Shown here piece after piece: positions 19,049 through 34,063 of a stretch of DNA of 64,000 nucleotides; the stretch's first letter is position 1, and every line of letters begins with the position of its first letter. Under the pieces are notes generated by a model, which saw nothing but the letters and a program-made list of their open reading frames with translations, was not told the origin of the DNA and did not search any database. This DNA comes from an uncultured Rhabdothermincola sp. (GTDB taxonomy: Bacteria; Actinomycetota; Acidimicrobiia; Acidimicrobiales; Acidimicrobilacustridaceae), in NCBI GenBank assembly GCA_964530525.1, contig CAZHBH010000003.1:1002-65001 (forward strand). Direction: 5' to 3'. A program made the position numbers and the translations under genes.

Positions 19049-19180
19049 CTTACGCGGGCTCGCCTGCCCGCGCAACAGAGGGGCAACCTCACGAAGCCGG
19101 CGCACATCTCCTCCCACACCCCTCCCAATCAGGTCGGGAGATGGTGGAGTCTGGCGGTCACCAGCGGTCAGGCCGCTACG

Positions 19181-19271: not shown

Positions 19272-19327
19272 GTTTATTTGCTTAAAAATGCTGGTCACAG
19301 GGTTGATTGTTGCTCATGATCTTGATT

Positions 19328-19373
19328 CTCCCCGAACTCTCCCCGTAAGATCTGGCTACGGTTAGCTACGGTT
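19328..19373 (+). promoter_or_regulatory. putative integrase arm-type sites (int-proximal end)
   Basis: TCTCCCCG occurs twice, 11 bp apart (19327-34 and 19338-45). GCTACGGTT occurs twice, 10 bp apart (19355-63 and 19365-73). All lie between the att core and the int start. Confidence 0.4.
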
Positions 19374-19400
19374 GGCTAAGCGGGGACAAGGGGGTCAGAG

Positions 19401-20771
19401 ATGGCGAGACCCGTGCAGGATGTGCGCATCTGGTCGCTCCAGGACCGGCGCAAGCACGCCATGGCCAAGCGGCCCTGGCTCGTGCGATGGGTGGTCGACG
19501 GCCGGGAGCACAACCGCTCCTACCGCACCCGAGCCGAAGCCGACCGCTACCGGTCTCAGCTCCTCGTGGCCCAGAGCAAGGCCGAGCGCTTCGACCACGA
19601 CAGCGGCGAGCCGGTGTCGTGGACACCAGTCACGGGCGACAAGCAGCTCGTCGCCTGGGTGCGCCAGTGGCTCGCCGAGCAGTGGCCGGAGTGGCAGCCC
19701 CGCACGCGAGCCTCAGCAGTGGAGGCGCTGGCCCGGTTCGTGCCCTTGGTGTGCTCGGCGTCGGCCCCAGAACCGCCAGCAGAGATGCGTGCCTATCTGG
19801 TCCAGTCCCTGCGCCCCGGTGCCGAGGTCGACGGCGCTCACCCGTGCGAACGGTGGCTGGCACGTTGGAGCCCGGCGCTCGGCCACCTCGACCGAGAGAT
19901 GATGGCCAACGTCGAACAGCAGTTGGCCATCGGCGCCAGTGGACAGCCCCTCTCGGCCAACGTCTCCAACCGCTACCGGACCACGGCGCACGCTTGCATC
20001 AAGCGAGCGGTGGAACTGGATGTGTTGGCAGCAGACCCGTGGCCACCTCCGCCGAGTGGTCGTCGGCGGCGCAAGAGCGCTCGCAAGCGCCGCTCGGTCG
20101 ACATCCGGCTCTTGCCCGATCCGGCCACGATGGAAGCCGCTATCGCTGCCATGCGCTCGCACCAGCCGGGCAGTCGCACCTACGAGGTCATGACCGCCGT
20201 GGCCTACTACGCCGGGCTCCGACCCTCCGAGGTGGTGGCGTTGCGCCCGCGATCGCTGGACCTGCCCGAGGAGGGCTGGGGTCGCATTGAGGTGGTCGAA
20301 GCCGACGTCGACTGGGACGAACCCGGCGAACCCAAGACCGGCCAGCGCTCCGTACCGATCCCGCCCCAGCTCGTGGCCATCCTGCGGTCGTGGATCGAGG
20401 ATGTCGGCGTGGGCGACGACAATCTGCTGTTTCGCACCAGAGGCAACAAGCGTCCGACCCAATCGAACTGGGGGAGAGCCTTGAAGCGTGGTCTGGCCGC
20501 CGTGGAGCACGACCCGATCCGGGTCTACGACTGCCGCCACGCTGCGGCCACCACATGGCTACGAGCAGGAGTCCCGCTCGGCGAGGTAGCTCGCCGCCTC
20601 GGCCACAGCGTCGAGACCCTGGTCTCCACCTACGTCGGCGCTCTCGAAGGCGACGAAGCCATCGCCAACGACCGCATCGAACAGGCTCTGTCCCCAACCG
20701 CCGAACGGTCGGCGTCTGCTGGATCTCAGCGGAGGAGACAAGCTCGATCGTCATCTTTCTATGTGGCCTAG
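19401..20771 (+). CDS. int: tyrosine-type site-specific integrase
   Basis: 456-aa ORF. Catalytic-domain landmarks are YYAGLRPSEVVAL (Arg), VYDCRHAAATTWL (H-x-x-R region) and LGHSVETLVSTYVG (His...Tyr). A Shine-Dalgarno AAGGGGG lies upstream. The gene is adjacent to the att repeat. Confidence 0.9.
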   Translation: MARPVQDVRIWSLQDRRKHAMAKRPWLVRWVVDGREHNRSYRTRAEADRYRSQLLVAQSKAERFDHDSGEPVSWTPVTGDKQLVAWVRQWLAEQWPEWQPRTRASAVEALARFVPLVCSASAPEPPAEMRAYLVQSLRPGAEVDGAHPCERWLARWSPALGHLDREMMANVEQQLAIGASGQPLSANVSNRYRTTAHACIKRAVELDVLAADPWPPPPSGRRRRKSARKRRSVDIRLLPDPATMEAAIAAMRSHQPGSRTYEVMTAVAYYAGLRPSEVVALRPRSLDLPEEGWGRIEVVEADVDWDEPGEPKTGQRSVPIPPQLVAILRSWIEDVGVGDDNLLFRTRGNKRPTQSNWGRALKRGLAAVEHDPIRVYDCRHAAATTWLRAGVPLGEVARRLGHSVETLVSTYVGALEGDEAIANDRIEQALSPTAERSASAGSQRRRQARSSSFYVA

Positions 20772-20902
20772 TCCGTCTCTAGGGACGCTTCGCCAACAGT
20801 GAGCGAACTAGCAGAGACTGAGTGGAAGATCTAGTCCAGTCGGAATTGATGAGTACGCCCTAGGTGCCTACTCTCAGTCTGAACGAGTTCTTCTCTGCAG
20901 GC

Positions 20903-22810
20903 TCAGGCGGCGATCTTCAGCGCCCGAGCGCCTGTAATGAGAGATTGGACGAGTTCAGGGACCTCTCCCTGCGCGTGGAGTGCTGCTTCTTGATAGGTCG
21001 CATGGTCCTTGCCGCTATATCCGAGACCGTCTTCTATTAGCGCCTCCTTCGCCTCTGCCCATGCTGGCCACATCTCCTCGAGGGCTTGTTCTAGGCCACC
21101 ATCGACGAATGTAAAGTTCGTAGCGACGCGACTGACGGGCCAGTCCAGTTCCGGGAGATTGAAAAAGCGTAGAAGTCTCCGATTCCAATCGATGGAGTCC
21201 TTGACGGAACCGGATAGCTTCTTTGCACGAACCTCGTCACCTCGGGACTCTACATCGGCCAATTCGTCCCGAAGGTGTGAATCGTTGTCCGCCACGAGAT
21301 ATACCGGGATGCCAATCTCGTCGAAGATTACGTAGGGCAAGAGGAGTCGTGTCTTGCCACCAGCCTCACCGATGAAGATGCCGTCCAACAGGAGTGGTAC
21401 AGATTCCTTGGTCGCGGCACCGGTCAAGACGGCGCGATCTGTGCTGCCCTCGACGAGAAGTACCACGTCAGCAAAGAATCCTTCTCCAAGCGCACCCAAG
21501 CAGACACCATCGAGTTGGCGCTGGATTGATTCTGGATCGATGAAAGTATCCAATCGTCGGACGACGTCGCCGACGCTCGAGCCCCGCACGATGACCCTCC
21601 CTTTGTTTCCAGACTGACGGGTCACGCGCCGAATCTGGTGAAACGACTTCGCTTCGATGAAGTATGGGCTGTGCGTCGCGTAGGTGACCTGGACACCCTT
21701 AGTTGCGTCCTCAGCGAGACCACGAAGCACAGCTGCGAACGATCTTGCTTGAAGTGGGTGCTGGTAGAGCTCGGGCTCTTCGATGGCTAGACACATGACT
21801 CCGTGGGTTGCCTCACGTCTCCCACGCTCAGCCAGCATCTTCAAGGCGGCGATCAGCAAGGCACGCTGAAATCCATGGCCCTGCCGCTCGACTCGCGTCT
21901 CAAGAGTGGAATCAAGAACCGCTACGTCAAATTGTACGCGCTGAGGCTTAAGTGGCTCTGACCGAGGAGTGACGGCCACGGCACGGCCCGTCGCGAACTC
22001 ACTGACTGCTGTCGTCAGCTCTGATGACAACTGGTCCAGTTGCTCCGACAGCAATCGGTTCTCGATCTCTGTCTGTGTTTTACCGAAGTTTTTGACTAGA
22101 TCTGCGATTTCCGCATCTACCTTCGTTCGATCGATTGCCTGCTCCAGGATCCGACCGATCACGGCGGTGCGTGAATCCGTCGTCTCCTCGGCAGCGCGGA
22201 GGTCGGCTGACACGAAGATGAAGTCGAAGAGCCCGGACATCAAGGCTTGGCCAGCGAAGCCGAAGAAATGGGACGTACTCTCGACGTCCGCGTCAGCGAG
22301 TTGATTCGGATGCTCCTGCTCCCACTCCGTCATCAGTTGGGACATGGCGGCATCGGTGGACCATGTAGGCAGCTCAAGTTCAGGCCTGTCAGCGCGAAGC
22401 GTTTGCCACAGACGCTTGCGTTCCGCCGCCGACCCGCCTGCGCGGACGGTGTCAAATCCCGCGAATGTCCGTCCGCGCCCGAAGATTTTGTCTTCGCCGT
22501 CGTGCCACCGTCTCCATAAGGTGACCGACTCGGCTGACGGAGGCGCGTACTTGCCCAAATGGCTCCGATCGTCGTCAGTAAGATGGTCGAACGTCACTTC
22601 GACCAGGACCACGCGCTCTGGATCGCGCTGGAAGACATCGTCCAAAGATAGAGACGAGCCCTTCGTTCCGTTGAAGAACCAGTCGAGTGCTCGGAGGATT
22701 GATGACTTCCCTGCACCGTTCGGACCTAGGAAGGTCGTGACTGCATCGAATCCTACCTCGATGTCCTCCAGGCCACGGAAGTTCTTGATGCGTAGCGAAG
22801 CGATCCTCAC
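20903..22810 (-). CDS. OLD-family nuclease (N-terminal ABC-type ATPase fused to C-terminal Toprim domain)
   Basis: IKNFRGLEDIEV...FLGPNGAGKSSILRAL is Walker A. QGHGFQRAL is signature-like. LAIEEPELYQHP is Walker B. YATHSP is the H-loop. The Toprim domain shows VVLLVEGSTDRAVL and VYLVADNDS. GTG start, preceded by GAGGGGGA. Confidence 0.85.
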   Translation of the reverse strand: MRIASLRIKNFRGLEDIEVGFDAVTTFLGPNGAGKSSILRALDWFFNGTKGSSLSLDDVFQRDPERVVLVEVTFDHLTDDDRSHLGKYAPPSAESVTLWRRWHDGEDKIFGRGRTFAGFDTVRAGGSAAERKRLWQTLRADRPELELPTWSTDAAMSQLMTEWEQEHPNQLADADVESTSHFFGFAGQALMSGLFDFIFVSADLRAAEETTDSRTAVIGRILEQAIDRTKVDAEIADLVKNFGKTQTEIENRLLSEQLDQLSSELTTAVSEFATGRAVAVTPRSEPLKPQRVQFDVAVLDSTLETRVERQGHGFQRALLIAALKMLAERGRREATHGVMCLAIEEPELYQHPLQARSFAAVLRGLAEDATKGVQVTYATHSPYFIEAKSFHQIRRVTRQSGNKGRVIVRGSSVGDVVRRLDTFIDPESIQRQLDGVCLGALGEGFFADVVLLVEGSTDRAVLTGAATKESVPLLLDGIFIGEAGGKTRLLLPYVIFDEIGIPVYLVADNDSHLRDELADVESRGDEVRAKKLSGSVKDSIDWNRRLLRFFNLPELDWPVSRVATNFTFVDGGLEQALEEMWPAWAEAKEALIEDGLGYSGKDHATYQEAALHAQGEVPELVQSLITGARALKIAA

Positions 22811-22832
22811 TCCATCCCCCTCTCGTCAGAAA

Positions 22833-22848
22833 ATCACACCAGTGTGAT
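22833..22848. promoter_or_regulatory. 7-2-7 inverted repeat (candidate operator) 23-38 nt upstream of the OLD gene start
   Basis: ATCACAC-CA-GTGTGAT inside the 149-bp spacer between the two nuclease genes. Confidence 0.3.
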
Positions 22849-22959
22849 CCGACAGCTCCGAACGTGCAACAGCTGGGGAAGATTCCAAGAGAAGGGGCAC
22901 TTCGGGACTGCCCGTACGTGCAGCGAGGAGGGTGACGCCCAGCTGGTGGAGGGCGGGAG

Positions 22960-24402
22960 TTAGAGATTCGATGCTGATGGGGGTTTACGAGCGTCGACAA
23001 GCGTACTCTTGAGATCGAGCCCGAGTTTATTGCCGAGTTCCCGCGTGCGCAGGGGCAGCGTCGTTCGTCGTTGACCTACGTCTGAGTTCCGCCGATGGCT
23101 TCGATATTGGATCGCGACGAATCGACCCACTGAACAACGGTCTGACTCAAGGTAGGAGGTCAGCTGATGTTCCAGCCCATTCCAGAACTTGCCATTGTGG
23201 AGTTTCTTAATCTCAAGCAGCGCACGGTTCTCATACCCACTGGAGAACTTGAAGTCGACTGGCCCGCGGCCAAGATCTACCTCGCGGTCGAGGACGATGT
23301 TGTGGGCGATGCAACGTGATTCAGCGAGAGCTCGGAAAAGGAGTTGAGCAGCTTCTTCATCCTTAGGGGTGCTATCATCATTGATCAGTCCATACCAGCC
23401 CCGTCGTTGTTCTACGAAGTGTTTGAAGTCCTTGATTAGCGAATCGATGAACGAGACGAAGGCTGGCTCATCTGTCACAGGAGCAAGGCTGAGTGGTGAT
23501 TCGGCAGCGTAGGCCTGTGCGTGGCGAAGCCAGTTGTAGATGCCCATGGGGTCCTGCTCGAGGTCATAGGGATCGGGGCTAATTCCCTCCCGCGCTCGGG
23601 TCCAGTTTTGGACCGCCTCAGGGTCGCGTCGTGCGAGATCGACGATGTCTTTTTTCCTCACATTGGATGAGATGTCGTAGTTGAGGTCAGCTCGGAGCTG
23701 TACAGCCTCCGAACTGGCCCAGAAGTCGTACGCATCGAGGCTGGGCAGCTTTCTGAGGAATCGCCTTGGCGTCAGGATCACGGGTAAGCCATTCTCCGGG
23801 TTGGTTGGCAACCTCACCTCGACAGGGTCCCAACGTAGGTATGTCGCATTGAACGCGCCTCGATCGATTCGATGCGGTTCCGTGGCAATCCCGTGCCGCG
23901 ACACCACTGTGATGGTGTACCTCGTGAACCTCTCGATGAGAACATTGCAGACGAGGTCGGAAATGCGGTCGCGCCCAATGCCTTCATTGAGAACCCCGAG
24001 GGTCTCGAAATGTGCAAGGTTCTCGATGCCTCTGTTGATCGAAAGCTCCATAGCTTCGCAGATACGCCGGGCATTGCCACGACCACTGCCAGATCCGCTG
24101 GTTCCGCTGTCAGTGAATCCGAGGCAGAACGGCCGTGGTTCGGGGAAGCGGAGAAGTTCCAGAGCCTTAGTCCGTTCCGGTGCGGAGGGTGTCTGTATCG
24201 TGTTCCCGACCATGTGGAACACGATGTTGAAGTAGGCAATCAGTTCAGCGTGAGCGCGGGCCCACAACTCCCCATCGTCCTTGAAGATTAGGAACGGATC
24301 TACGAACAACCGCGTGTCGGCACCGAGGATGGGGTCGAACCAGTCGTCGTCTTCTTCTATGAGTTCGATACCGAAGTAGTTTGAGAAGTAGTTTGCCGCC
24401 AT
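22960..24402 (-). CDS. hypothetical 480-aa protein with C-terminal PD-(D/E)xK nuclease-like domain
   Basis: ATG start, coding-like composition, low GC. The C-terminus reads DEEAAQLLFRALAE...DREVDLGRGPVDFKFSSGYENRALLEIKKL, which is the helix-E, D, ExK order of restriction-endonuclease-fold enzymes. I do not recognise the N-terminal ~350 aa. Confidence 0.6.
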   Translation of the reverse strand: MAANYFSNYFGIELIEEDDDWFDPILGADTRLFVDPFLIFKDDGELWARAHAELIAYFNIVFHMVGNTIQTPSAPERTKALELLRFPEPRPFCLGFTDSGTSGSGSGRGNARRICEAMELSINRGIENLAHFETLGVLNEGIGRDRISDLVCNVLIERFTRYTITVVSRHGIATEPHRIDRGAFNATYLRWDPVEVRLPTNPENGLPVILTPRRFLRKLPSLDAYDFWASSEAVQLRADLNYDISSNVRKKDIVDLARRDPEAVQNWTRAREGISPDPYDLEQDPMGIYNWLRHAQAYAAESPLSLAPVTDEPAFVSFIDSLIKDFKHFVEQRRGWYGLINDDSTPKDEEAAQLLFRALAESRCIAHNIVLDREVDLGRGPVDFKFSSGYENRALLEIKKLHNGKFWNGLEHQLTSYLESDRCSVGRFVAIQYRSHRRNSDVGQRRTTLPLRTRELGNKLGLDLKSTLVDARKPPSASNL

Positions 24403-24489
24403 CGACTGATCCTAGGTCTTTGGCTGCAATCATGAGGCTCATTGCGCGGGGATCGCTGGGACGGCGATGAGACTCACCACAGCTCACTC

Positions 24490-24720
24490 TCAGCGCGACG
24501 TGGTGTCGCGCGGTGATGGTGGCCAGGTTGGGTGGATGCGGGATTGGTTGACCCACTCGTCTATCTCGTCGGGGTCGAAGCGGATGAAGTGGCCAAGCTT
24601 GATGTAGGGGATGCGACGTTCGGCGATGAGGCGGCGGATGTAGCGGACTCGGACGCCGAGGCGTACAGCGAGCGAGTGGACGTCGAGGAGCTTGTCGTCG
24701 GGGTTCTGGGTGGTCGTCAT
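24490..24720 (-). CDS. xis: excisionase-family / AlpA-like HTH DNA-binding protein
   Basis: From the ATG at 24720: MTTTQNPDDKLLDVHSLAVRLGVRVRYIRRLIAERRIPYIKLGHFIRFDPDEIDEWV. This is the HTH_17 excisionase pattern (...IPyiKlG...rF....i..W). Confidence 0.75.
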   Translation of the reverse strand: MTTTQNPDDKLLDVHSLAVRLGVRVRYIRRLIAERRIPYIKLGHFIRFDPDEIDEWVNQSRIHPTWPPSPRDTTSR

Positions 24721-25044
24721 GAGGTTCCTTATTTGGTGTGGGCCATGGCCTCGCGGCCGTGGCACTCCGGTCCTGCCAGGAGAACAAGACGACGTCCTTG
24801 TTTCGGCACCTTCCAAGGCACCGGGATAGTCCCCGGTGGGCAGGGGGATTCCGATGAGAGGAGATCGAAGGTGCATCGGATCGATGGCTTTTGAGGCCGC
24901 TCGCGACCCCCGTGACCAGCGGTTGGGACGTCGACGAGGACGTGCACGGTGCCTCTACGGTGATATGTGGCATGACTCTCTAGGCCCCAGAGGGAACTTC
25001 CGCGTCGCGCAGGCTTCCGGGGTCGATCTAGCCTTCCAGACGCT

Positions 25045-25917
25045 GTGTCGGCGTGTTCCACCAACGTGAGGTCTAAACTCACTTTTGTGAAACGAGTTGA
25101 CTTTGAGGGCCTGTGGGATCGGTTCCTTGCCGAGGGGCGGGGAGTTGTCACAACCACCCAGCTCCGAGAGGAGACTGGGGCCAGCGCCGATGCCGTTCGG
25201 GCAGCCGCGGCCAACGCCGTGCGCAAGGGTCTTCTGTTCAGTCCCGCCAAGGGCCTCTACGTGCCCGTGCCCCCTAAGTACCGCAGTTGGGGCGTCATTC
25301 CTGCCGATCACTTCATCGACGCCATGATGAGCTACCTGGGCTGTGAGTACTACGTGGGCTTCCTCTCAGCTGCAGCGCACTGGGGGGCGTCGCATCAAGC
25401 GGTGCAGGAGTACCAGGTTGTCGTCGATCGCCACGTGCGCGACCGCGACATCGGGCGAGTGCGGATGCGGTTCCACCGCATCCGCCGCCTCGATGAACGC
25501 GAAACGGTTCGCATCGCAGGCACTGAAGCAATGCTGACCGTGGCGAGCCCCGAGCAGTGCGCTGTGGACCTGGTGGAGCACCCCTCTTGGGGTGGAGGGC
25601 TCTCCAACGTCGCCACGGTGCTTGCCGAGCTGCCCAACCTCGACGCCGTGAAGTTGTCCTCTCTCGCCGCCCGCCGTCCCCGGCCCCTGGCGCAACGGCT
25701 CGGGTGGCTCCTCGACAGCGCCGAAGTCGGCGTCGATCTCGAACCTCTGGCTCAGCTCGCTCGTTTGAGTACCCGGTCCACGCTGCTCGATTCCCGCCAG
25801 CCTCGTGGTGGTGAGCGCGACGAGCGCTGGGGTGTCATCGTGAACACCCGAGTCGACCCCGACACGTGGTCCTCGGGATGGGGCCTGCGAAAGTCCAGAC
25901 CGCTGGATTGCCCTTGA
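25045..25917 (+). CDS. AbiEi-family (COG5340-like) antitoxin/transcriptional regulator with no adjacent AbiEii
   Basis: N-terminal wHTH-like GVVTTTQLREETGASADAVRAAAANAVRKGLLFSPAKGLYVPVP. The middle block YYVGFLSAAAHWGASHQ is typical of AbiEi. The start is uncertain (GTG 25045 or GTG 25087). Confidence 0.65.
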   Translation: MSACSTNVRSKLTFVKRVDFEGLWDRFLAEGRGVVTTTQLREETGASADAVRAAAANAVRKGLLFSPAKGLYVPVPPKYRSWGVIPADHFIDAMMSYLGCEYYVGFLSAAAHWGASHQAVQEYQVVVDRHVRDRDIGRVRMRFHRIRRLDERETVRIAGTEAMLTVASPEQCAVDLVEHPSWGGGLSNVATVLAELPNLDAVKLSSLAARRPRPLAQRLGWLLDSAEVGVDLEPLAQLARLSTRSTLLDSRQPRGGERDERWGVIVNTRVDPDTWSSGWGLRKSRPLDCP

Positions 25918-25983
25918 AGTGAGTACGACGTATGATGTGACATATCCACGACATTGCAACCGGCTTTTCTGCGACGAGGATTC

Positions 25984-26319
25984 ATGACCACTCTGACCTC
26001 ACTACTTGACCACCTGTATGAAGGGGATGTGGTGGACACCGCGGATCTGGCGCGGGTCAGCGACACGAACCCACGGAGCGTGGCTCGTTGGAGGGCCGAA
26101 GCGGCTGCTCCGCGCCGGGACGCTGAGGAGCGACTGCTCGAGCTGCGCGCCGTCGTAGACCTGGCACGCAGGGTGATGAGAGATGACGCAGCCCGTCTCT
26201 GGATGCGGTCACCCAACCCCGATCTGGACTACGAGAAGCCGATCGATCTGGTTGCGGAAGGCCAGTACCAGCGAGTGATCGATCTTCTCCTCGCCTTGGC
26301 GGAGGGCGTCACCGCCTGA
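25984..26319 (+). CDS. DUF2384 (Xre/MbcA/ParS-type) antitoxin
   Basis: The C-terminal ARLWMRSPNPDLDYEKPIDLVAEGQYQRVIDLLLALAEGV is the classic DUF2384 block (W...pn..LgG..P.dl...g....v...L). The ATG at 25984 is preceded by GAGGA. The stop lies 1 nt before the RES gene. Confidence 0.75.
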   Translation: MTTLTSLLDHLYEGDVVDTADLARVSDTNPRSVARWRAEAAAPRRDAEERLLELRAVVDLARRVMRDDAARLWMRSPNPDLDYEKPIDLVAEGQYQRVIDLLLALAEGVTA

Positions 26320-26320
26320 G

Positions 26321-26857
26321 ATGCCGTCGTTCGACTCTCGAAAGATCGGACGGTTGGCGGGCACGGCGCTGTCCTCCGTCGGCTACCGAAACCAAGCCCC
26401 CGGATTCGATCCTCGCAGCGGTGAGGGGGCACGACGTCGTGGCGGTCGGTTCAACCCGCCTCACAGCTATCCGGTCCTGTACTTGTGTACGACTCGTCCC
26501 TGCGTCGCGGCCGAGCTCACACGGCAGGCTGCGCGACAGGGCCTCAGCGTCAGCGACCTCTTGCCCCGCGAGCTTTGGGAGATCAGCGCCCCGCTCGTGA
26601 AGGTGCTCGACCTGACCGACGTGACCACGCGCGACGCGCTTGATCTGTCGACATCCGACCTCCTCCGCGACGACCACCGCTTCACCCAGGAGATCGGCGA
26701 AGCTGCCCATGAACATGGCTTCCAGGGCATCCGCTCCCCATCTGCCACTGGTGTTGATGATGTCCTCGCCGTCCTTCCCGAGAATCTCGCCGGGGTCGTG
26801 CTTGAGGTTGAACGAGTCGGAGAATGGCGAACCATCGAGGACTTCGAAGCTCTCTAG
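26321..26857 (+). CDS. RES-domain toxin (MbcT/ParT-like NAD+-targeting enzyme family)
   Basis: GGRFNPP (R), CVAAELTR (E) and GIRSPSATG (S) appear in the expected order and spacing. It sits directly downstream of the DUF2384 gene. Confidence 0.8.
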   Translation: MPSFDSRKIGRLAGTALSSVGYRNQAPGFDPRSGEGARRRGGRFNPPHSYPVLYLCTTRPCVAAELTRQAARQGLSVSDLLPRELWEISAPLVKVLDLTDVTTRDALDLSTSDLLRDDHRFTQEIGEAAHEHGFQGIRSPSATGVDDVLAVLPENLAGVVLEVERVGEWRTIEDFEAL

Positions 26858-27069
26858 TCGCTCTAGCCAGCCCTTGTTATCAGCGCTCAGTGCTTTGTGC
26901 CTGATGTGAGGTCTCCGTGTCACTCATCCCTGAGACAGCGTATATAACCCTTAGTACCCAGTACTACTCGTCCAAGCAATGTGGCCACTATTCACCCATA
27001 TAACTCTCCATTTTCCGTTGTATAAAAGGAGAAAGGACGGCACATATGCACTCTCCGAGAGTGCTATGT

Positions 27070-28505
27070 GGGACTGTCCGACTGATTGTGTAAGTGGCGT
27101 GATCTGAGGGTCCGCGGCCTAGTGCCGTGGGCCAAGGAGGATCGCTGCGATGACAACCACTACTTCTACATCGATGACACCGGCTCCCGGCAAGGGTCTG
27201 CGCCTGCCCCGTATGGTGACCAAGGTGGGCGACGAGGAAGCAATGGGCGCCTGGGCCGATGAGCTCGTCGAGCGGGCTCGAGCCGAAGGCGTGGAGCTCA
27301 CCGGCGAGGACGGGCTGTTGACGGCTCTGGTTCGCCAGGTGCTCCAGACGGGCCTGGAGATCGAGATGACCGATCACCTCGGCTACGAACGCCACGACCC
27401 CGCTGGGCGAGGGTCGGGCAACTCCCGCAACGGGGCCTATCCCAAGACCCTCATCACCGAGATCGGAAAGGTCGACCTCGCTGTTCCGAGAGATCGCAAC
27501 GGCTCCTTCGAGCCGGCCACTGTGCCCAAGGGCCAGCGCCGCCTCGACGGGCTGACGGGTAACGTCACCTCGCTCTACGCGAAGGGCCTCAGCACCGGTG
27601 ACATCCAGGCGCACCTGGCGGAGATCTACGACTGCGACATCTCCCGAGACACCATTTCGCGCATCACCGATGCGGTGCTCGAAGACCTCGTCGCCTGGCA
27701 GAACCGGCCGCTGGATCGCATCCCGGTGATCTTGATCGACGCCATCGTGGTGAAGATCCGAGACGGCGCGGTGGCCAACCGCCCGATCTACGTGGCCATG
27801 GGCATCAACCTCGACGGTGAGCGAGACGTGCTGGGACTCTGGGTCGGGCCCACCGGCGGCGAGGGAGCCAAGTTCTGGCTCAACGTGCTCACAGAGCTGC
27901 GCAACCGTGGCATCCACGACACCTTCATCGTGTGCTGTGACGGCCTCAAGGGCCTCCCCGAGTCCATCCGGGCCACCTGGCCGTTGGCCGAGGTCCAGCT
28001 CTGCGTTGTTCACCTCGTGCGCTCTTCTATCCGTTACACCTCCAAGAAGCACTGGGGCCAGGTGTGCCGCGAGATGCGAGAGATCTACACCGCTCCGACG
28101 CTTGCTGCGGCAGAGGCCCGCTTCGGCGAGTTCTCCGACACCTGGCGCGAGAGATACCCCGCCATGGTGGAGACCTGGGAGCGGTCCTGGGCCGAGTTCG
28201 TCCCGTTCTTGGACTACCCGCCCGAGCTGCGCCAGGTCGTCTACACGACCAACGCCATCGAGAGTCTCAACGCCCGGTTCCGAAAGGCCGTGCGACATCG
28301 GGGCCACTTCCCAACTGAGCAGGCGGCCTTGAAGGTCCTCTACCTCGTGGCGATCGAGAGGAGGAAGAACCGCTCCAACCCCACCGGGAGGATCAACGGC
28401 TGGAAGCCGATCCTGAACGCACTGACCATCCACTACGGCGACCGCATCACCGCAGCTGCCTGACCATGACCGTCGCGTCGCTTACACAGAGAATCGGACA
28501 GTCCC
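27070..28505 (+). mobile_element. IS256-family insertion sequence (1436 bp)
   Basis: Terminal inverted repeats are GGGACTGTCCGACTGATTGTGTAAG (27070-94) and the reverse complement of 28481-505, GGGACTGTCCGATTCTCTGTGTAAG. They match at 21 of 25 positions. A single mutator-type transposase ORF lies inside. I could not find a flanking 8-9 bp target duplication. Confidence 0.8.
27150..28463 (+). CDS. tnp: IS256-family (mutator-type) transposase
   Basis: 437-aa ORF with LLTALVRQVLQTGLEIEMTDHLGYERHD...NSRNGAYPKTL...VPRDRNGSFEP...IDAIVVKIRDG...TTNAIESLN. These are canonical IS256 transposase blocks. Confidence 0.9.
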   Translation: MTTTTSTSMTPAPGKGLRLPRMVTKVGDEEAMGAWADELVERARAEGVELTGEDGLLTALVRQVLQTGLEIEMTDHLGYERHDPAGRGSGNSRNGAYPKTLITEIGKVDLAVPRDRNGSFEPATVPKGQRRLDGLTGNVTSLYAKGLSTGDIQAHLAEIYDCDISRDTISRITDAVLEDLVAWQNRPLDRIPVILIDAIVVKIRDGAVANRPIYVAMGINLDGERDVLGLWVGPTGGEGAKFWLNVLTELRNRGIHDTFIVCCDGLKGLPESIRATWPLAEVQLCVVHLVRSSIRYTSKKHWGQVCREMREIYTAPTLAAAEARFGEFSDTWRERYPAMVETWERSWAEFVPFLDYPPELRQVVYTTNAIESLNARFRKAVRHRGHFPTEQAALKVLYLVAIERRKNRSNPTGRINGWKPILNALTIHYGDRITAAA

Positions 28506-28639
28506 GAGTATGGAAGTGGAATCGCCTGGTATTGATCTCTAGCTCCGATCTTCTCTCATCACGGAGCTGGCGAATGGTGCCCCAGAGCCGCCGATAGGGG
28601 GATGCACTCGTCTCCCAGCAGGTGGGCGCGGGTCGGCCC

Positions 28640-31600
28640 CTACCAGCCCTCGGGATGCGGGAGACCGAGGCGGATGGCCTGTTCGACAACGACTCTGATG
28701 TGCGCTGGGTCACTCCCCACTCGAAGCCGCGGCATCAGTTCGTGCAGCTGGTACCCGCCCCACCACGGCTGCTCGGTGCTGCGCATCAGGTGGCCGATCA
28801 CCCTTGCGCACGCGTCCGGTGAGTCGTCGACGCGTCGTTCCAGGTGGCGTAGGACGTCGTCGTGCTCTCGGAAGCGGCCGGGCCGGCTGGTCACGAGGTG
28901 CGCTCCTGACTCAAAGGAGTTGCCCAGGAACGGGATCCACCCCACCATCGCTGTGGCCTCCTCGAATGAGAGCTGAGTCGGAATACTGGTCAGGCGGTTG
29001 CTCCAGTACGTATGCATCCACCGGGTCCACTGGTGTTCGACCGCTTCGCCGGGCAGTTTGTCCAGGATGTTGGCGACCTTGTCGGCGAACGTGGAGCGTT
29101 CGTCGTTGCTCAGGTCCACGATGACTCCTGGCAGCCACTCCAGGGGGTCACGGTCGCTGGTGAGGGCGATCCCGGCGAGGTGGCCGAGGATCGACCCTTG
29201 GTGCTTGTCATCGAGCTCACCTAGGTGACCGACGGCCTGGAGGTAGTGATCCATGAGCCCGGCGTCGAGCATCTGATCGTTCCAACGGCCCCAGCCGGTG
29301 AAGCTGTTCCAGGCTCGGCGAGCCCGAGGTGCATCGGACCAGTCGAGGAGCGGCATCACGTTCTGGATCGTCCAGTCCGGGTCGGCTGCAAACAGGAAGT
29401 GCAGCCGACTGGCGCAGATTACTTCAGCCATCTGCGTTCGGGACTCGCCCGAGGGGCCGCCGAGCATTGCCTCGAAGGCTTCGCGGTGCTCCTCTGTCAG
29501 GCCGGACCATGTCTCTTCATCTGCTCGCCAGTCGTGTTGGATGACGTGCAGCCAGAACTCAGCGAGGTTTCCCCCCGGGTGGTTGATCGCACGGGTGAGC
29601 CAGTCGATCTCGCCGAACACGACCTCTTCGTCGGGGATCAGCTGCCAGAGCTCTCGGGCCAGTTGCCGGGCTCCGGGCACGGCTGTCCAATCGGTGGGAT
29701 ATCCCTCGGATCGACCTCCGGCTGAGAGCATCCGAGCGAGATCCCGGGTGAGGGTCGTGTGGTCGAGAGCAGCGATGCGTCTAAGGACGTCTGCAGCCGC
29801 TTTGGCATCGAGTTCAGCGCGGCTCCATCCTTTGATGACAGCTTGTGTGACTTCGGCGTCTGGTGGATCGGCGTTGAGGAGCCGGTAGCCGTCATTCGGT
29901 TCGGTCTGAACCGCCGAGGTGATGAGGGTCAAGGAATCCTCCCAGGTGGGTACGCCCTCCCAATGGCCAACGCCCCTGGTCTCCTGCAGCGTCGAGAGCA
30001 GCGATGAAGGATCAGCTTCGAGCTGTTCATGGAGGTTCTCCACAGACATGGGGGGTCTTGAGGGAACAAACCCACTCTCCATCGAATGGGTCAGATCGGG
30101 GTTTGTTCGTGCTATCCAGGTCGGATCGACTGCGTGGGCCTCCGCCAGTGCCGCTGTGATGCGAGGGTGGTCAGGGCGGGACCGGTCCATCCAGACAAGT
30201 GCGTTGAACCGTTCGTAGGGCCGGTGCTCCGACTCCTCCTCGTCTGGTTCGAACACGGCACTGATGAGCGCCTCGATCGCCTCATCTGAGGCCCCTGGGA
30301 GAGCTGCAGCGATCAGGCGGAACGCCTCGTGGCGCACCCGGTGGTTGAAAAGCCAGCCGGAGCGCACCACCCAGTCGAGCTTGGCCGAGGAGTCGACGTC
30401 GCTCCGGTGGATCCAGCCATGGATAGCCAGGCGCTGGAGGATCTGCGAGTCTGCTGTGGCCCAGGACTGCAGATACCCGATTGCGATCGGATCAGAGGCA
30501 TTGAGCAGAGCTTCAATCCCATCGCGTGCCGCGTCGATCAGTACATCGATCGGCTCGGTGTATTCGTCCTGAGGATGTGGCTCAATGGCGCTCCGGCCGA
30601 ACGAGATTACATCAAAGCTGAGACTGCCTGGGTGAGCGGCGACCTGGAGATCACTCACTCGTCGTAGGTGCCGGTCGGCCATTGCGACGACCGCATGGAC
30701 AACCTCGGAGAGGTTCGGCTTGAGGATCTGAGCCCACGCCTCCTGGAGCCAGTGATCGTCGCCACGCAGGTGAATACCGAGGCGTGGCGGGCCCAACCCG
30801 AACGAGGATGTCAGCCCCGCGGTGGGTTCGGTCAAATGATCGAACAGCAGCAGAATCTGCTCCCGGTCATCTGGCCAGGTCGAGGCATTGAGCGCGAAAT
30901 CGAACCAGTTGCGAGTTGAGGTAGGCGCATCACGGAGCAGAAGCACGAGCCAGATTCCCAGCCAACCGGGCCGAGGTGCTCCACGACGGTGAAGTTGAAA
31001 CCCGATCTCGTCGCAGATCTCAGGTCCGAGGTAGCCACCGCTCTCGCTTACAAGGCCGAGCGCACGCTCTGTGTGCTCCTCCACCATTACAAAGAACTCA
31101 ACGAACCACCTGGCAAGGGCTCGTCCAGCTTCCGAGGGCGGCGATCCTCGGGCGAGCAACATCCTGAACACGGGCTGCGTAGCCGCCCAGTCGAGCCATT
31201 CTGGTGCTCGTGCGACCTTGGTGAAGAGCCCGACCCGGTCGGGATCAGCAATCAGCTCCTCAAGGTAAGAGGTGTCCTCAGGGATCTCCGAAGGCGGAGA
31301 CGCGACCAACTCGGCGACCCGCTGGCGATGGTCGAGCAGCCCCATCCCTGCGATCTCCGCCCAGCGGGCAAGCACATCTCCGAGCGCGGCGTGCGAGCCT
31401 GCAACAACCTCGTACCCAATAGGCCGAAGGCCAAGGTCCATCCAATCCCGCGCCCCGGGCGTGTCAGTGAGTATGTATCGGTGGCCATCAGGTCCGAGTG
31501 CTCGCGCCAGGTAACGCATGACCACGTCGCCATGGCTGTAGCCGATGAACAGCACACTGAACTTGGCGAACATCCGCTCCAAGAACCGCGCCGCCCAAGC

Positions 31601-32128
31601 ATCACGCAGGTACGCCTTGCCGAAGTCACCGTCGGTCACGACAAGGCGCTCTGGGGGCTGGCAAAGGGTACCGTGCAGGTACACCAGCCCGGTGAAGTCG
31701 TTGCCCACCGGTAGTGCCGGTGCTGCGTACTCCTCGACCTCGACTCCTCTGGCATGGATCACCGATGTCAGATGCCGATCGAAGTTGGTCGTGACGATCC
31801 TTAGATGTGGCGCTGTCAGCCCAAGATCCACGACTGCTTCGTGGAGGCGGTTGTGTTGCGACCGTGGAGCTCTGAGGTGCTCCGCAACACGGAGGTGAAC
31901 ATCGACACCTCGATCCTTGATACGCCCGAGCACGACGTCCGGGTGAAGGAGGTCGCCGTCATGCAGGGCGTAGCGTGTTTCATCGGCGATCGATCTCGTC
32001 AGCCGTTGGAAATCAGGAAGGTCAGACGGGGTGTCTCGGGAGGCACCTGCGCCAACGAACAGAACAAGGCGACCTGCTCGGTGCGCGTCGACCAGCTCCG
32101 AGGGAACCTCAACGCCACCGGCCCACAC
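28640..32128 (-). CDS. 1162-aa SIR2-domain protein with long helical C-terminal region (SIR2_2 + DUF4020-like; DSR-like single-gene defence candidate)
   Basis: The N-terminal ~230 aa read RLVLFVGAGASRD, IVTTNFDRHL, LVYLHGTL and VLFIGYSHGD, which is the SIR2_2 family with catalytic Asn/His positions present. The rest is about 900 aa rich in Trp, Leu and Asp with no motif I recognise. GTG start with no obvious SD. Confidence 0.8.
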   Translation of the reverse strand: MWAGGVEVPSELVDAHRAGRLVLFVGAGASRDTPSDLPDFQRLTRSIADETRYALHDGDLLHPDVVLGRIKDRGVDVHLRVAEHLRAPRSQHNRLHEAVVDLGLTAPHLRIVTTNFDRHLTSVIHARGVEVEEYAAPALPVGNDFTGLVYLHGTLCQPPERLVVTDGDFGKAYLRDAWAARFLERMFAKFSVLFIGYSHGDVVMRYLARALGPDGHRYILTDTPGARDWMDLGLRPIGYEVVAGSHAALGDVLARWAEIAGMGLLDHRQRVAELVASPPSEIPEDTSYLEELIADPDRVGLFTKVARAPEWLDWAATQPVFRMLLARGSPPSEAGRALARWFVEFFVMVEEHTERALGLVSESGGYLGPEICDEIGFQLHRRGAPRPGWLGIWLVLLLRDAPTSTRNWFDFALNASTWPDDREQILLLFDHLTEPTAGLTSSFGLGPPRLGIHLRGDDHWLQEAWAQILKPNLSEVVHAVVAMADRHLRRVSDLQVAAHPGSLSFDVISFGRSAIEPHPQDEYTEPIDVLIDAARDGIEALLNASDPIAIGYLQSWATADSQILQRLAIHGWIHRSDVDSSAKLDWVVRSGWLFNHRVRHEAFRLIAAALPGASDEAIEALISAVFEPDEEESEHRPYERFNALVWMDRSRPDHPRITAALAEAHAVDPTWIARTNPDLTHSMESGFVPSRPPMSVENLHEQLEADPSSLLSTLQETRGVGHWEGVPTWEDSLTLITSAVQTEPNDGYRLLNADPPDAEVTQAVIKGWSRAELDAKAAADVLRRIAALDHTTLTRDLARMLSAGGRSEGYPTDWTAVPGARQLARELWQLIPDEEVVFGEIDWLTRAINHPGGNLAEFWLHVIQHDWRADEETWSGLTEEHREAFEAMLGGPSGESRTQMAEVICASRLHFLFAADPDWTIQNVMPLLDWSDAPRARRAWNSFTGWGRWNDQMLDAGLMDHYLQAVGHLGELDDKHQGSILGHLAGIALTSDRDPLEWLPGVIVDLSNDERSTFADKVANILDKLPGEAVEHQWTRWMHTYWSNRLTSIPTQLSFEEATAMVGWIPFLGNSFESGAHLVTSRPGRFREHDDVLRHLERRVDDSPDACARVIGHLMRSTEQPWWGGYQLHELMPRLRVGSDPAHIRVVVEQAIRLGLPHPEGW

Positions 32129-32256
32129 AGTCGACGATCGTAGGCTGAAAGTTCATCGTGGCCGATGAAGCCCCGACGGAACGGTAGGCCGAGAGTCCCC
32201 ACTCGGCAGGAAGATTCCCAACCCGGCACGCCACTCTGAGATAAGGAGGACCAACC

Positions 32257-32799
32257 ATGATGCACACTGACGACGACCTCATAGCCGCAGCCCACCTCAT
32301 TGCCACCGAGTGGACCGAGCTTGCCGAGATCGCTGGGCTTCTCGCTCGGTTTTCTGGTATCAGGGGGGCTGCTGAGCAGGCGTGGATGGATGCCTTCTTC
32401 GTCCACGACCGGTGCCTCATCAACTTCCTCTGCGGCGGGTACAAGGGCAGGTGGCAGGTCGACGACATCAAGCCCGCCGATTTCCTCGGCGATCTGTGGA
32501 CCCTTGAGGACGAGGACCTCGACCGTCAGCTACGCGGCCGCCTCGCCACCATCAATTCCAAGATGGCTCACCTAACGTGGAAGAACTTCACCGACGACGC
32601 GCCGATCATCTGGAACGCCGGGTCCCTTGCGCACGAAACGCACTACGCCATGGGGCTGTTCGTCGCTGCACTGGAGGCCGCAGGCCGGCCCGGGCTTGGA
32701 GTGCTCAAACAGGCCCAGGCGACAGCGCAGACCTCTCTCCCGGCTCTCCGAAAAGTCCGTCAGACCGCAGCGCCCCAAGCGCCGCTGCGGCACCAATAG
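32257..32799 (+). CDS. hypothetical protein (180 aa)
   Basis: ATGATG start 7-8 nt after a perfect AAGGAGG. Coding-like codon usage. Divergent from the SIR2 gene. No recognisable motif. Confidence 0.6.
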   Translation: MMHTDDDLIAAAHLIATEWTELAEIAGLLARFSGIRGAAEQAWMDAFFVHDRCLINFLCGGYKGRWQVDDIKPADFLGDLWTLEDEDLDRQLRGRLATINSKMAHLTWKNFTDDAPIIWNAGSLAHETHYAMGLFVAALEAAGRPGLGVLKQAQATAQTSLPALRKVRQTAAPQAPLRHQ

Positions 32800-32915
32800 C
32801 GGAGATTCCCGACGTGTCCCCGCTGTGCCGTTCGAGGTGAGCACGATGCTCGCTGGCGGCGCTGAGGCTGAGTATGGGAAAGAAATGATGGCAGCGGTTC
32901 TTCTTTGGTTTCGAA

Positions 32916-33449
32916 CTACGTGCTGCCTTGAGCCCCGATGAGTTGGAGGGCTGCGCTGGGGCTGTGGGTTTCGGTGAGGGTTCGCCAGTGGTCGACGAGG
33001 TTGTCGGGGACTTGGAGGGCGGCGTCGACGTAGTCGAGGTGGAGGTGGGGGTCTCGGCAGGTGTCGCCTGGGTTGATCGAGTAGTCGTAGGTCAGCTGCT
33101 GGAGCAGGTCCTCAGCGGTGTCGGCGACCTCGCACCACAGGCGGGCTGGCCAGGAGTCGATTCCCTTGTGGTGGATCACGTACTCCACGTAGTGGCCGAG
33201 CGTGTGGAGGGCACGCATCACTGACTCGCAGGCGGAGTCGACGCCGCCCTCGCTGAAAGTGATCGCCCAGTCGGCTCGATTCAGATCGTCGGCTGCTATA
33301 GCGGCGATGTCCCTCCCAGCGGGATCGTCGAAGTGCTGGGCGACCCTCCAGCAGGCGAGCACTAGCTCTCGGCACGTCGAGGCGATCACCTCGGGTGTCA
33401 TAGGTCCGTTCCCTGGGCCGTGACGGGGCGCTCTCGTAGAATCCGTCAT
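32916..33449 (-). CDS. hypothetical protein (177 aa)
   Basis: The ATG at 33449 lies 7 nt after a perfect AAGGAGG. Acidic and His-rich. No recognisable motif. Confidence 0.6.
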   Translation of the reverse strand: MTDSTRAPRHGPGNGPMTPEVIASTCRELVLACWRVAQHFDDPAGRDIAAIAADDLNRADWAITFSEGGVDSACESVMRALHTLGHYVEYVIHHKGIDSWPARLWCEVADTAEDLLQQLTYDYSINPGDTCRDPHLHLDYVDAALQVPDNLVDHWRTLTETHSPSAALQLIGAQGST

Positions 33450-33522
33450 GTCAGTACCTCCTTGCAGGTGCTGGCACGGGCTGGGGGGAGGGCCAACTCC
33501 CCTCAGCCCACCTTCACTTGTT

Positions 33523-33556
33523 GATCACCAAATCCTATCTCCACCATTTGGTGATC
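33523..33556. promoter_or_regulatory. perfect 11-bp inverted repeat with 12-bp spacer (candidate operator) in a divergent intergenic region
   Basis: GATCACCAAAT (33523-33) - N12 - ATTTGGTGATC (33546-56), between the start of 32916..33449(-) and the start of 33603..33788(+). Confidence 0.45.
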
Positions 33557-33602
33557 GTCAAGGGATTCAAAGGGGAGGGGAACTGCTGACTACGGTGGTG
33601 GC

Positions 33603-33788
33603 GTGAAGCTCGACCTGGTGGGCGTGGCCGAGATCGCTACTCTTCTCAGCGTCACGACGCAAAGGGTCGACCAGCTGGCTCGGACCAAGGGGTTCCCTGA
33701 GCCGGTAGCCGTCATCTCGGCCGGGCGCATCTGGCTTCTCAAGGACATCGAGCGCTGGGCGAAGCAGACCGGCCGCTCTCCCGGCTGA
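33603..33788 (+). CDS. small HTH DNA-binding protein (excisionase/AlpA-like, HTH_17-type)
   Basis: The 61-aa product reads VAEIATLLSVTTQRVDQLARTKGFPEPVAVISAGRIWLLKDIERWAKQ, a pattern of HTH followed by a conserved W. The start codon is uncertain (several in-frame GTGs). Confidence 0.6.
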   Translation: MKLDLVGVAEIATLLSVTTQRVDQLARTKGFPEPVAVISAGRIWLLKDIERWAKQTGRSPG

Positions 33789-33862
33789 AGCATCCCTGGC
33801 CCTAGCCAGCCCGACCTCCACTCGTCGCGCGCAGCCGGTACGGGCCTTCTGATCCGGCAATC

Positions 33863-33891
33863 CTCCCCGTGCTCTCCCCGTAGCCTCCCCG
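33863..33891 (+). promoter_or_regulatory. putative integrase arm-type sites (tRNA-proximal end)
   Basis: CTCCCCGT occurs three times with exact 11-bp phasing, starting at 33863, 33874 and 33885. The motif and strand are the same as the pair at 19328/19339. Confidence 0.4.
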
Positions 33892-33946
33892 TGAACGAGG
33901 GGAAATCGAGGTCAGAAGGGGTGAACGGCGGTTACCAGCGGCGAAG

Positions 33947-33976
33947 CTCTGACCAGGGTGTTTATCCTGGTCAGAG
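33947..33976 (-). terminator. hairpin immediately 3' of tRNA-Arg
   Basis: CTCTGACCAGG-GTGTTTAT-CCTGGTCAGAG. The 11-bp stems are the same as in DR1 and DR2 but the loop differs. It lies 15 nt downstream of the tRNA 3' end on the minus strand. Confidence 0.5.
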
Positions 33977-33991
33977 CCAATCTCTGCACTG

Positions 33992-34063
33992 CGCCCCCGC
34001 CAGGATTCGAACCTGGGCACACGGTTTAGGAAACCGATGCTCTATCCCCTGAGCTACGAGGGC
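33992..34063 (-). tRNA. tRNA-Arg (anticodon CCU)
   Basis: The reverse complement folds by hand. Acceptor GCCCTCG/CGGGGGC, D arm GCTC-AGGGGATA-GAGC, anticodon loop TTCCTAA, T arm CCAGG-TTCGAAT-CCTGG, discriminator G. Length 72 nt. CCA is not encoded; the next bases are CAG. Confidence 0.9.

Follow-up and report, generated by a model that had tools for sequence, protein, structure and literature searches.

A divergent actinobacterial Dsr1 homologue, probably a single-polypeptide anti-phage NADase, in an integrative genomic island

The window, a 64,000-nucleotide stretch of one contig from an uncultured Rhabdothermincola sp., encodes a 1162-residue protein that, judged by its sequence, is a distant homologue of Dsr1 and not an equivalog. 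We consider it probable that this protein is a divergent Dsr1 of an actinobacterial clade, in other words a single-polypeptide anti-phage system in which a sensor triggers an NADase. The finding extends a known family by one member; it reveals no new kind of system and no new mechanism. The gene and its parts are the following.

28640..32128, minus strand: Dsr1-like coding sequence, 1162 aa, GTG start, TAG stop at 28640-28642 (open reading frame list and translation)
31343..32128, minus strand: SIR2-type NADase effector domain, approximately residues 1-262, alpha/beta fold
28643..31342, minus strand: all-helical solenoid, the Dsr1-type sensor, approximately residues 263-1162
28880..29140, minus strand: DUF4020 match within the sensor (Pfam, residues 997-1083)
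32039..32053, minus strand: GAGAS NAD-binding glycine motif, residues 26-30, codons checked
31784..31786, minus strand: codon AAC of the predicted catalytic Asn115, in TTNFD
31673..31675, minus strand: codon CAC of the predicted catalytic His152, in YLHGT

Translation of the 1162-aa frame reveals no internal stops, and the protein agrees with its homologues, which are 1160-1170 aa long, in length and at both termini. No recognisable promoter or ribosome-binding site was found upstream of the GTG start, and scanning the surroundings of the gene for promoters and terminators gave no signal beyond the shuffle expectation. Pfam detects two families only in the protein: SIR2_2 (PF13289) at residues 111-211 (E 5.2e-17) and DUF4020 at residues 997-1083 (E 8.8e-6; 26.0 bits, where the gathering score is 22.7). 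In the AlphaFold2 model (mean pLDDT 88.3) a SIR2 fold passes directly into a helical solenoid, and the C-terminal ~900 residues are nearly all helix at high confidence. Their composition is 4.1% Trp, 11.1% Leu, 7.3% Asp and 7.8% Glu.

Within the effector domain, VLFVGAGAS begins at residue 22, TTNFD at 113, YLHGT at 150 and FIGYSHGD at 194. The alignment of 82 family members shows conserved GAGxS, TTN(F/Y)D and (Y)LHG motifs; G26, A27, G28, S30, T113, T114, D117 and H152 are invariant, and Asn115 is kept in at least 90%. The predicted catalytic residues are Asn115 and His152; both positions aligned with them are changed to Ala in the KomBC mutant 9v12 relative to 9v0g. An earlier note on this DNA had read from the letters a 1162-aa frame at 28640-32128, the same four SIR2 motifs with catalytic and NAD-binding positions in place, a helical Trp/Leu/Asp/Glu-rich C-terminal part of ~900 aa and, as a guess, a likeness to DUF4020. 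All of these readings hold: the frame is intact, the motifs are present and conserved in the 82-sequence alignment, composition and AlphaFold2 agree on the C-terminal part, and the DUF4020 match lies above the gathering score.

The best structural matches in the PDB (Foldseek) are the SIR2 NADases DSR2, KomC and ThsA, with DSR2 chains at the top; TM scores are 0.65-0.70 against the isolated SIR2 domains of DSR2 and KomC. Other matches are generic karyopherin- and CAND1-like solenoids. Sequence searches of the PDB matched the SIR2 domains of KomC and DSR2 over residues 6-208, and when a solved relative of the sensor was sought there with both the single protein and the 82-sequence profile, only SIR2 domains were matched.

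Homology to Dsr1, by comparison, extends over the full length of the protein. The Dsr1 model NF041818 is the sole NCBIfam match (E 4.5e-77), although its 259.9 bits, spread over three stretches, miss the equivalog cut-off of 1400 bits. Two PADLOC Dsr1 models also match, PDLC04167 at E 3.7e-55 and PDLC02183 at E 1e-54, as model scores taken without PADLOC coverage thresholds; the second-best PADLOC family, LmuA, reaches just E 1.7e-5. BLASTP against Pantoea Dsr1 returns a single colinear alignment (residues 3-1098 against 5-1218, E 1e-47), and residues 300-1162 alone align with the C-terminal region of that protein (E 1.6e-18, 681 columns). An E. coli Dsr1 shares 33% identity with the protein across the SIR2 region (E 2e-35) and matches a segment of the sensor at E 5e-7. 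When the 82-sequence family was compared with three PGAP-named Dsr1 proteins by hhalign, the probability was 100% (E 3.6e-58) over 1055 aligned columns, spanning 25-1142 of the family and 6-1237 of Dsr1.

The sensor, which had been described as uncharacterised and without recognised relatives, is thus over ~900 aa a colinear homologue of the Dsr1 sensor (BLASTP, hhalign). The earlier note took close full-length homology to DSR1 as the mark of a known system. By that measure the full-length homology places the protein in a known system; the homology is not close, however, since identity to validated-type Dsr1 is ~24% overall and ~22% in the sensor, and the score falls under the NCBIfam cut-off. 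Given this identity and a bit score so far below the equivalog level, function, and above all trigger specificity, is not confidently transferable from characterised members.

The protein belongs to a clade with 302 matches in a one-genome-per-species collection, mostly from Actinomycetota, and GenBank names clade members just "SIR2 family" or "DUF4020 domain-containing". Close relatives in GenBank include WP_155543364.1, WP_144759194.1 and MBF6555942.1. A phmmer search with the sensor only retrieved 1950 representative proteins. The best 150 of these 1950 have the same architecture, are SIR2 plus DUF4020 proteins or are apparent fragments, and matches of odd length in the representative search are likewise SIR2 plus DUF4020 proteins or apparent fragments. 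The distribution of the clade across taxa is patchy and synteny is not shared; no identical protein is on record, and the nearest relative, at 82% identity, sits in an unrelated genomic context. A literature search for "DUF4020" returned no papers, and in the literature searched we found no experimental test of any member of the actinobacterial clade. Searching plasmids by tblastn with the sensor for fusions to Avs7 or other effectors yielded Dsr1 or SIR2 proteins only; with the E. coli Dsr1 sensor as query, the matches were again Dsr1 or SIR2 proteins, together with a single IS-flanked fragment and a single pair in which SIR2 and sensor are split.

The gene is carried by a small mobile defence island of the integrative type, bounded by a direct repeat.

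19223..34063, no strand assigned: integrative genomic island, 14.8 kb
19223-19277 and 33991-34045: 55-nt direct repeat, 96% identical, equal to the 3' part of tRNA-Arg(CCT)
33991-34063, minus strand: tRNA-Arg(CCT), at the island boundary
19401-20771, plus strand: tyrosine integrase (phrog_1, E 6e-38)
27070..28505, plus strand: IS256-family insertion sequence, downstream context and not part of the system

Besides the Dsr1-like gene, the island cargo includes an Old/GajA-like nuclease with PDC-M36A, AbiEi and an Xre/RES pair. A separate observation is that RES and SIR2, both predicted NAD+-attacking modules, occur together on the island. GC content is 57-64% inside the element against 67-71% in the high-GC host flanks, a minor correction to the earlier note, which spoke of a high-GC element. 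The IS256 open reading frame (27150-28463) matches Transposase_mut at E 7e-121 and lies between imperfect 33-nt terminal inverted repeats at 27070-27102 and 28473-28505; no clean 8-bp target-site duplication was found flanking the element. With the inverted repeat ending at 28505, 134 bp separate the element from the stop codon of the Dsr1-like gene, in line with the ~135 bp noted before.

Two alternatives place the protein outside a stand-alone defence role. If the system were multi-gene, the adjacent island genes would be required, either the unannotated open reading frames at 32257-32799 and 32916-33449 or the Xre/RES pair. These two frames have coding-like GC3 (0.78-0.81) without a family match, and RES toxins also target NAD+. 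Yet the candidate partners never recur beside homologues in 80 loci, IS256 stands between the gene and Xre/RES, and Dsr1 is reported to work as a single protein. More generally, the commonest cluster of neighbours occurs in just 9 of the 80 loci and none is conserved; any one Pfam family is found in at most 8 of the 118 flanking open reading frames, where relaxases, integrases, restriction-modification genes and ArdC are the recurrent families. The closest relatives share ~75% nucleotide identity, and the similarity ends at the gene borders. TIR/ThsB, HerA and Argonaute are absent from the island genes, as had been claimed, and so is a KomB partner. None of the four recurs among the clustered neighbours in the 80 loci or among the commonest Pfam families (for the first three, the top 25) in the 118 flanking frames. 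Because no neighbour is conserved, we interpret the gene as a single-gene system and reject the multi-gene reading, which we regard as very improbable. This is also what the earlier note proposed in calling it a stand-alone DSR-type SIR2 protein, with Asn and His positions that look intact and no ThsB/TIR, HerA or Argonaute neighbour.

Very improbable, too, is a role unconnected with defence, in which the protein would be a sirtuin of housekeeping or regulation that deacylates proteins or transfers ADP-ribose and carries a large scaffold. Deacylase activity does occur among SIR2 folds. The Pfam match, however, is to SIR2_2 (PF13289) and not to the canonical SIR2 family, and the canonical model PF02146 finds no match in the protein at E up to 1. 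With C156 as the only Cys of residues 1-262, the SIR2 region lacks the Cys4 zinc ribbon that deacylase sirtuins have. The nearest solved relatives, KomC, DSR2 and ThsA, are phage-defence NADases, and both the setting in a low-GC integrative island amid defence and toxin-antitoxin genes and the patchy taxonomic spread without shared synteny argue against such a role.

Returning to the reading as a divergent Dsr1, we infer NADase activity, autoinhibition, a trigger and a defence phenotype along the following lines. Without infection, the helical sensor of ~900 residues would keep the N-terminal SIR2 domain inactive. Upon infection the sensor would bind a phage protein, for which the precedent of E. 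coli Dsr1 makes the major capsid protein the likeliest candidate, and the SIR2 domain would then hydrolyse NAD+ to ADP-ribose and nicotinamide by way of Asn115 and His152. Falling cellular NAD+ would in turn block phage replication. For DSR1 itself, depletion of NAD+ upon infection has been reported (bioRxiv 10.1101/2021.12.14.472415), and other Dsr1 proteins have been shown to protect against phage.

The trigger had been called unknown. For the family this no longer wholly stands, as the major capsid protein of phages is reported to trigger EcDsr1, the only Dsr1 for which this is known, by way of a sensor common to it and Avs7 (PMC12803255, PMC13581612); for the protein in the window, the major capsid protein is a putative trigger suggested by that analogy. 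Both Avs7-type sensors screened, SeAvs7 and EcDsr1, are reported to respond to the major capsid protein (PMC13581612, Nature 2026;657:735), and in the hhalign comparison colinear homology to Dsr1 spans the entire sensor. These observations weigh against the possibility, which we regard as unlikely though worth keeping in view, that a Dsr1-type NADase here senses another phage component or is activated by another route, such as a host co-factor, the part that EF-Tu plays for Avs7. That possibility draws on a sensor just ~22% identical to proteobacterial Dsr1 and on residues 700-850, the most variable stretch of the clade (32-43% mean identity to the window protein), which fits an evolving specificity. 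Many phage proteins are also reported to be recognised by several unrelated sensors (Nature 2026, PMC13581612). DSR2, with the same effector, senses the tail tube protein.

More doubtful is the proposal that the DUF4020-bearing actinobacterial clade forms a functionally distinct Dsr1 subfamily, in which the sensor, ~22% identical to that of E. coli Dsr1, recognises another actinophage protein or needs another co-factor. If this were true, the sensor scaffold of Dsr1 and Avs7 could be re-targeted to proteins other than those of the capsid.

The analysis shows that a large actinobacterial set now labelled just "SIR2 family" or "DUF4020" consists of full-length Dsr1 homologues, amounting to hundreds of species genomes and approximately two thousand representative clusters. 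Pfam DUF4020 can now be seen in context, within the phage-sensing region of Dsr1-type proteins. The preferred reading as a divergent Dsr1 also supplies a testable hypothesis for defence in Actinomycetota, with the actinophage major capsid protein as the candidate trigger. Few defence systems have been tested in this phylum, which is relevant to wastewater (Microthrixaceae) and to the biology of antibiotic producers.

Looking across the known systems, ThsA of Thoeris, SIR2-HerA, SIR2/pAgo and KomC have a related SIR2 NADase effector fold and share its catalytic Asn and His with the window protein. They differ in being multi-gene, with short SIR2 proteins and the partners ThsB/TIR, HerA, Argonaute and KomB. 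Membership in Thoeris (as ThsA), SIR2-HerA or SIR2-pAgo was rejected, as the protein has no SLOG domain and the island no partner gene.

DSR2 of Bacillus subtilis (PDB 8K98, 8WY8 and others) resembles the window protein in joining an N-terminal SIR2 NADase to a long alpha-solenoid sensor in one polypeptide. Sequence similarity, however, covers residues 6-207 only, in the SIR2 domain (E 0.0025 with the single sequence and 5e-5 with the profile), the global TM score is just 0.20-0.25 (Foldseek), and no PADLOC Dsr2 model matches. A sensor of the DSR2 MID/CTD type was rejected on these grounds, the PDB matches being to SIR2 only; DSR2 represents a separate sensor lineage that recognises the tail tube protein.

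Avs7 is a STAND NTPase with a Dsr1-type TPR sensor, and the Dsr1 and Avs7 sensors are reported to be homologous (PMC13581612). By transitivity, the sensor in the window would join the same sensor family, for which a list of 9,097 Avs7-sensor proteins has been published (PMC12803255, PMC13581612). Unlike Avs7, the window protein has no STAND NTPase domain (Pfam, AlphaFold2) and carries a SIR2 effector instead.

Dsr1 is the closest counterpart. It shares the single-gene organisation, the N-terminal SIR2_2 NADase domain with the motifs GAGxS, TTNxD and LHG, and a homologous helical sensor that is colinear to the C-terminus; Dsr1 genes are often found beside integrases or on plasmids, a setting like that of the window gene. 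The Dsr1 proteins of E. coli, Pantoea, Ralstonia and Shewanella are ~1275 aa long, whereas the window protein is ~110 residues shorter. The DUF4020 match is present in the window protein and its clade but absent from Pantoea Dsr1 (Pfam), and therefore we place the actinobacterial proteins and Pantoea Dsr1 in distinct clades of one family.

The defence-specific libraries, PADLOC and NCBIfam, point to a single family, Dsr1, for the protein encoded at 28640..32128. The Dsr1 models of PADLOC matched at E 3.7e-55 and 1e-54 (next family 1.7e-5), and the sole NCBIfam match was NF041818, "anti-phage defense-associated sirtuin Dsr1" (E 4.5e-77), whose score of 259.9 bits is far under the 1400-bit equivalog cut-off and fails that threshold. 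The four SIR2 motifs quoted in the earlier note were all found in the translated reading frame:

28640..32128, minus strand: Dsr1-like ORF, GTG start, 1162 codons, uninterrupted
Residue 22, minus strand: VLFVGAGAS motif (translation)
Residue 113, minus strand: TTNFD motif, Asn115 being codon 31784-31786 (translation and codon check)
Residue 150, minus strand: YLHGT motif, His152 being codon 31673-31675 (translation and codon check)
Residue 194, minus strand: FIGYSHGD motif (translation)

Pfam places SIR2_2 at residues 111-211 (E 5.2e-17) and DUF4020 at residues 997-1083 (E 8.8e-6, slightly over the gathering score), in line with the guess that the C-terminal region is DUF4020-like. The composition of these ~900 residues agrees with the description of them as rich in Trp (4.1%), Leu, Asp and Glu. 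Their helical look was matched by an AlphaFold2 model built from an 82-sequence alignment of homologues (mean pLDDT 88.3, pTM 0.65). In this model, residues 1 to ~262 form an alpha/beta SIR2 fold, followed up to the C-terminus by a solenoid that is helical almost throughout.

Deacylase sirtuins carry a zinc ribbon. The SIR2 region has only one cysteine, so this ribbon is missing, and the region fits an NADase rather than a protein deacylase. Across the 82-member alignment, G26, A27, G28, S30, T113, T114, D117, H152 and G153 are invariant and N115 is kept in at least 90% of members; the NAD-binding and catalytic positions, which had looked intact from the sequence, are thus conserved. In the KomBC mutant (PDB 9v12, compared with entry 9v0g), Ala occupies both positions that align with Asn115 and His152.

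To ask whether similarity to Dsr1 extends past the SIR2 domain, we used genes that PGAP names dsr1, from Pantoea, Ralstonia and Shewanella plasmids and one E. coli chromosome. BLASTP against Pantoea Dsr1 (1279 aa) gave a single colinear alignment (3-1098 versus 5-1218, 24% identity, E 1e-47), and residues 300-1162 by themselves matched the Dsr1 C-terminal region (E 1.6e-18, 681 columns). Profile-profile comparison of the 82 family members with three Dsr1 proteins (probability 100%, E 3.6e-58, 1055 aligned columns) extended to both termini, and tblastn of the sensor alone against plasmids returned Dsr1 or "SIR2 family" genes and nothing else. By these comparisons the ~900-aa region is the Dsr1-type sensor, and Pfam DUF4020 forms a part of it. 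The DSR-type architecture named in the earlier note was right, and its view that neither the sensor nor its trigger was known has been overtaken by this full-length homology and by literature from 2026.

DSR1 depletes NAD+ upon infection, and in Bacillus with phi29 the loss is transient and occurs without culture collapse (bioRxiv 10.1101/2021.12.14.472415). The trigger of E. coli Dsr1 is the phage major capsid protein, sensed through a bilobed TPR-type sensor that is also found in Avs7, a STAND protein. In that study, mutating the effector abolished both defence and toxicity (PMC12803255, which appeared as PMC13581612). Because of these precedents, we propose that the sensor of the Dsr1-like protein would bind a structural protein of the phage, with the capsid protein as the likeliest candidate, that binding would release or assemble the SIR2 domain, and that this domain would hydrolyse NAD+ via Asn115 and His152, presumably protecting against phage. 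The analysis itself shows the homology, the intact catalytic positions, the organisation as a single gene and the setting on a defence island, from which NADase activity, protection and the trigger are inferred. The trigger is the weakest step, as sensor identity is ~22%. The DUF4020-positive actinobacterial clade might instead have a trigger or activation requirement unlike that of E. coli Dsr1, which we regard as rather unlikely; capsid sensing is the reading we prefer.

The gene stands alone, as had been claimed. Clustering of all flanking ORFs at 80 loci found no conserved partner gene; the largest clusters were tyrosine integrases (9/80), relaxases (8/80) and type I HsdR (5/80). No Pfam family recurred in more than 8 of the 118 immediately flanking ORFs, and those recurring were TrwC relaxases, UvrD helicases, type I and type IIG restriction-modification, ArdC, integrases and IS genes. 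Nucleotide similarity of ~75% to the two closest genomic relatives stops a few bases from the gene borders. With no conserved partner and with similarity confined to the gene itself, it acts as a single-gene module that is self-contained and moves horizontally.

A protein search returned 939 clusters, the best 120 of which were nearly all ~1160-aa SIR2_2(+DUF4020) proteins. GenBank names members of the family no more specifically than "SIR2 family protein" or "DUF4020 domain-containing protein". Among 302 confirmed matches in a species-level genome scan, the top ones were two MAGs, one from Microthrixaceae (74% identity) and one from Acidimicrobiia (72%). Next in rank were Amycolatopsis, Micromonospora, Mycobacterium, Nocardioides and Streptomyces, and a handful of matches fell in Gemmatimonadota, Firmicutes, Chloroflexota, Verrucomicrobiota and Proteobacteria. 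The sensor alone matched 1950 representative clusters (E <=1e-3), the best 150 being of identical architecture or shorter, and none of ten odd-geometry shorter proteins scanned from these carried an alternative effector.

At four loci (L028, L032, L034 and L076, from Nocardioides, Phycicoccus, Janibacter and Propionibacteriaceae) the Dsr1-like gene immediately follows a type I restriction HsdR gene, and in the first three a TrwC-type relaxase/helicase gene comes next after it, which suggests that a common conjugative or integrative element carries both genes. On Bradyrhizobium japonicum plasmid NZ_CP066352.1 (L088, 1906-5867), a Dsr1-like locus is annotated as two ORFs, the first for a SIR2 family protein of 408 aa and the second for a hypothetical protein of 890 aa matching the E. 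coli Dsr1 sensor. This locus is a Dsr1 with a frameshift or else a truly split two-gene form.

The gene lies among other defence-related genes on an integrative island, where GC content drops to 57-64% from the 67-71% of the flanks:

19223-34063, unstranded: integrative genomic island, 14.8 kb (direct repeat, tRNA, integrase, GC)
19223-19277 and 33991-34045, unstranded: 55-nt direct repeat, the tRNA 3' part, 96% identity
19401-20771, plus strand: tyrosine integrase (family match)
Within 20903-24402, minus strand: Old/AriA/GajA-like ATPase-TOPRIM nuclease, 635 aa (PADLOC Old E 3e-52; Pfam AAA_15 and OLD-like TOPRIM)
Within 20903-24402, minus strand: 480-aa protein after the Old-like gene (PADLOC candidate PDC-M36A E 2.6e-28; phrog_30194 E 3.5e-57)
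25045-25917, plus strand: AbiEi antitoxin-like gene (PADLOC AbiEi E 3e-67)
25954-26857, plus strand: Xre/ParS-type antitoxin (121 aa) and RES-domain toxin (178 aa) pair (domain matches)
27070-28505: IS256-family element, 1436 bp (Transposase_mut E 7e-121)
32257-32799, plus strand: small ORF, 180 aa (GC3 coding-like)
32916-33449, minus strand: small ORF, 177 aa (GC3 coding-like)
33567-33860, minus strand: small ORF, 97 aa (ORF call)
33991-34063, minus strand: tRNA-Arg(CCT), the integration site (tRNA call)

Both repeat copies also have a hairpin shortly downstream, so that it too is duplicated (19172-19210 and 33938-33976, 82% alike), and CTCTCCCCGTA-like motifs that are likewise present close to both island ends (19325-19347 and 33860-33893) may be integrase arm sites. 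The Old-like and PDC-M36A genes probably form a two-gene candidate defence system. No AbiEii nucleotidyltransferase was recognisable beside the AbiEi-like gene. ORF 24245-24973 (minus strand) is non-coding-like (GC3 0.51) and without a family match, so no gene is assigned to the stretch at 24.4-25.0 kb. RES toxins degrade NAD+. RES-based phage defence was described in a 2026 preprint (10.64898/2026.01.28.702374), and the island may thus hold two NAD+-targeting modules, RES and the Dsr1-like SIR2 protein.

An AT-rich 210-bp stretch (26858-27069) runs from the RES stop to the IS256 end. The IS256 copy, previously placed ~135 bp downstream of the Dsr1-like gene, ends 134 bp past its stop codon by its imperfect 33-nt terminal inverted repeats (27070-27102 and 28473-28505); its flanks (left TGCTATGT, right GAGTATGG) show no clean 8-bp target-site duplication. 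On the other side, the three small ORFs separate the gene from the tRNA. Those at 32257-32799 and 32916-33449 have coding-like GC3 (0.78-0.81); none of the three matched Pfam, NCBIfam, PADLOC or PHROGs, or recurs beside homologues of the Dsr1-like gene elsewhere.

Among known systems, DSR2 was set aside as the family: sequence similarity to its structures is limited to residues 6-207 and global superposition is poor (TM 0.20-0.25), the likeness being that isolated SIR2 domains superpose (TM 0.65-0.70). To Dsr1, in contrast, the protein is homologous across its full length, from which we predict that it acts as Dsr1 does. It differs in falling under the curated equivalog threshold and in belonging to a distinct, mainly actinobacterial, DUF4020-positive clade.
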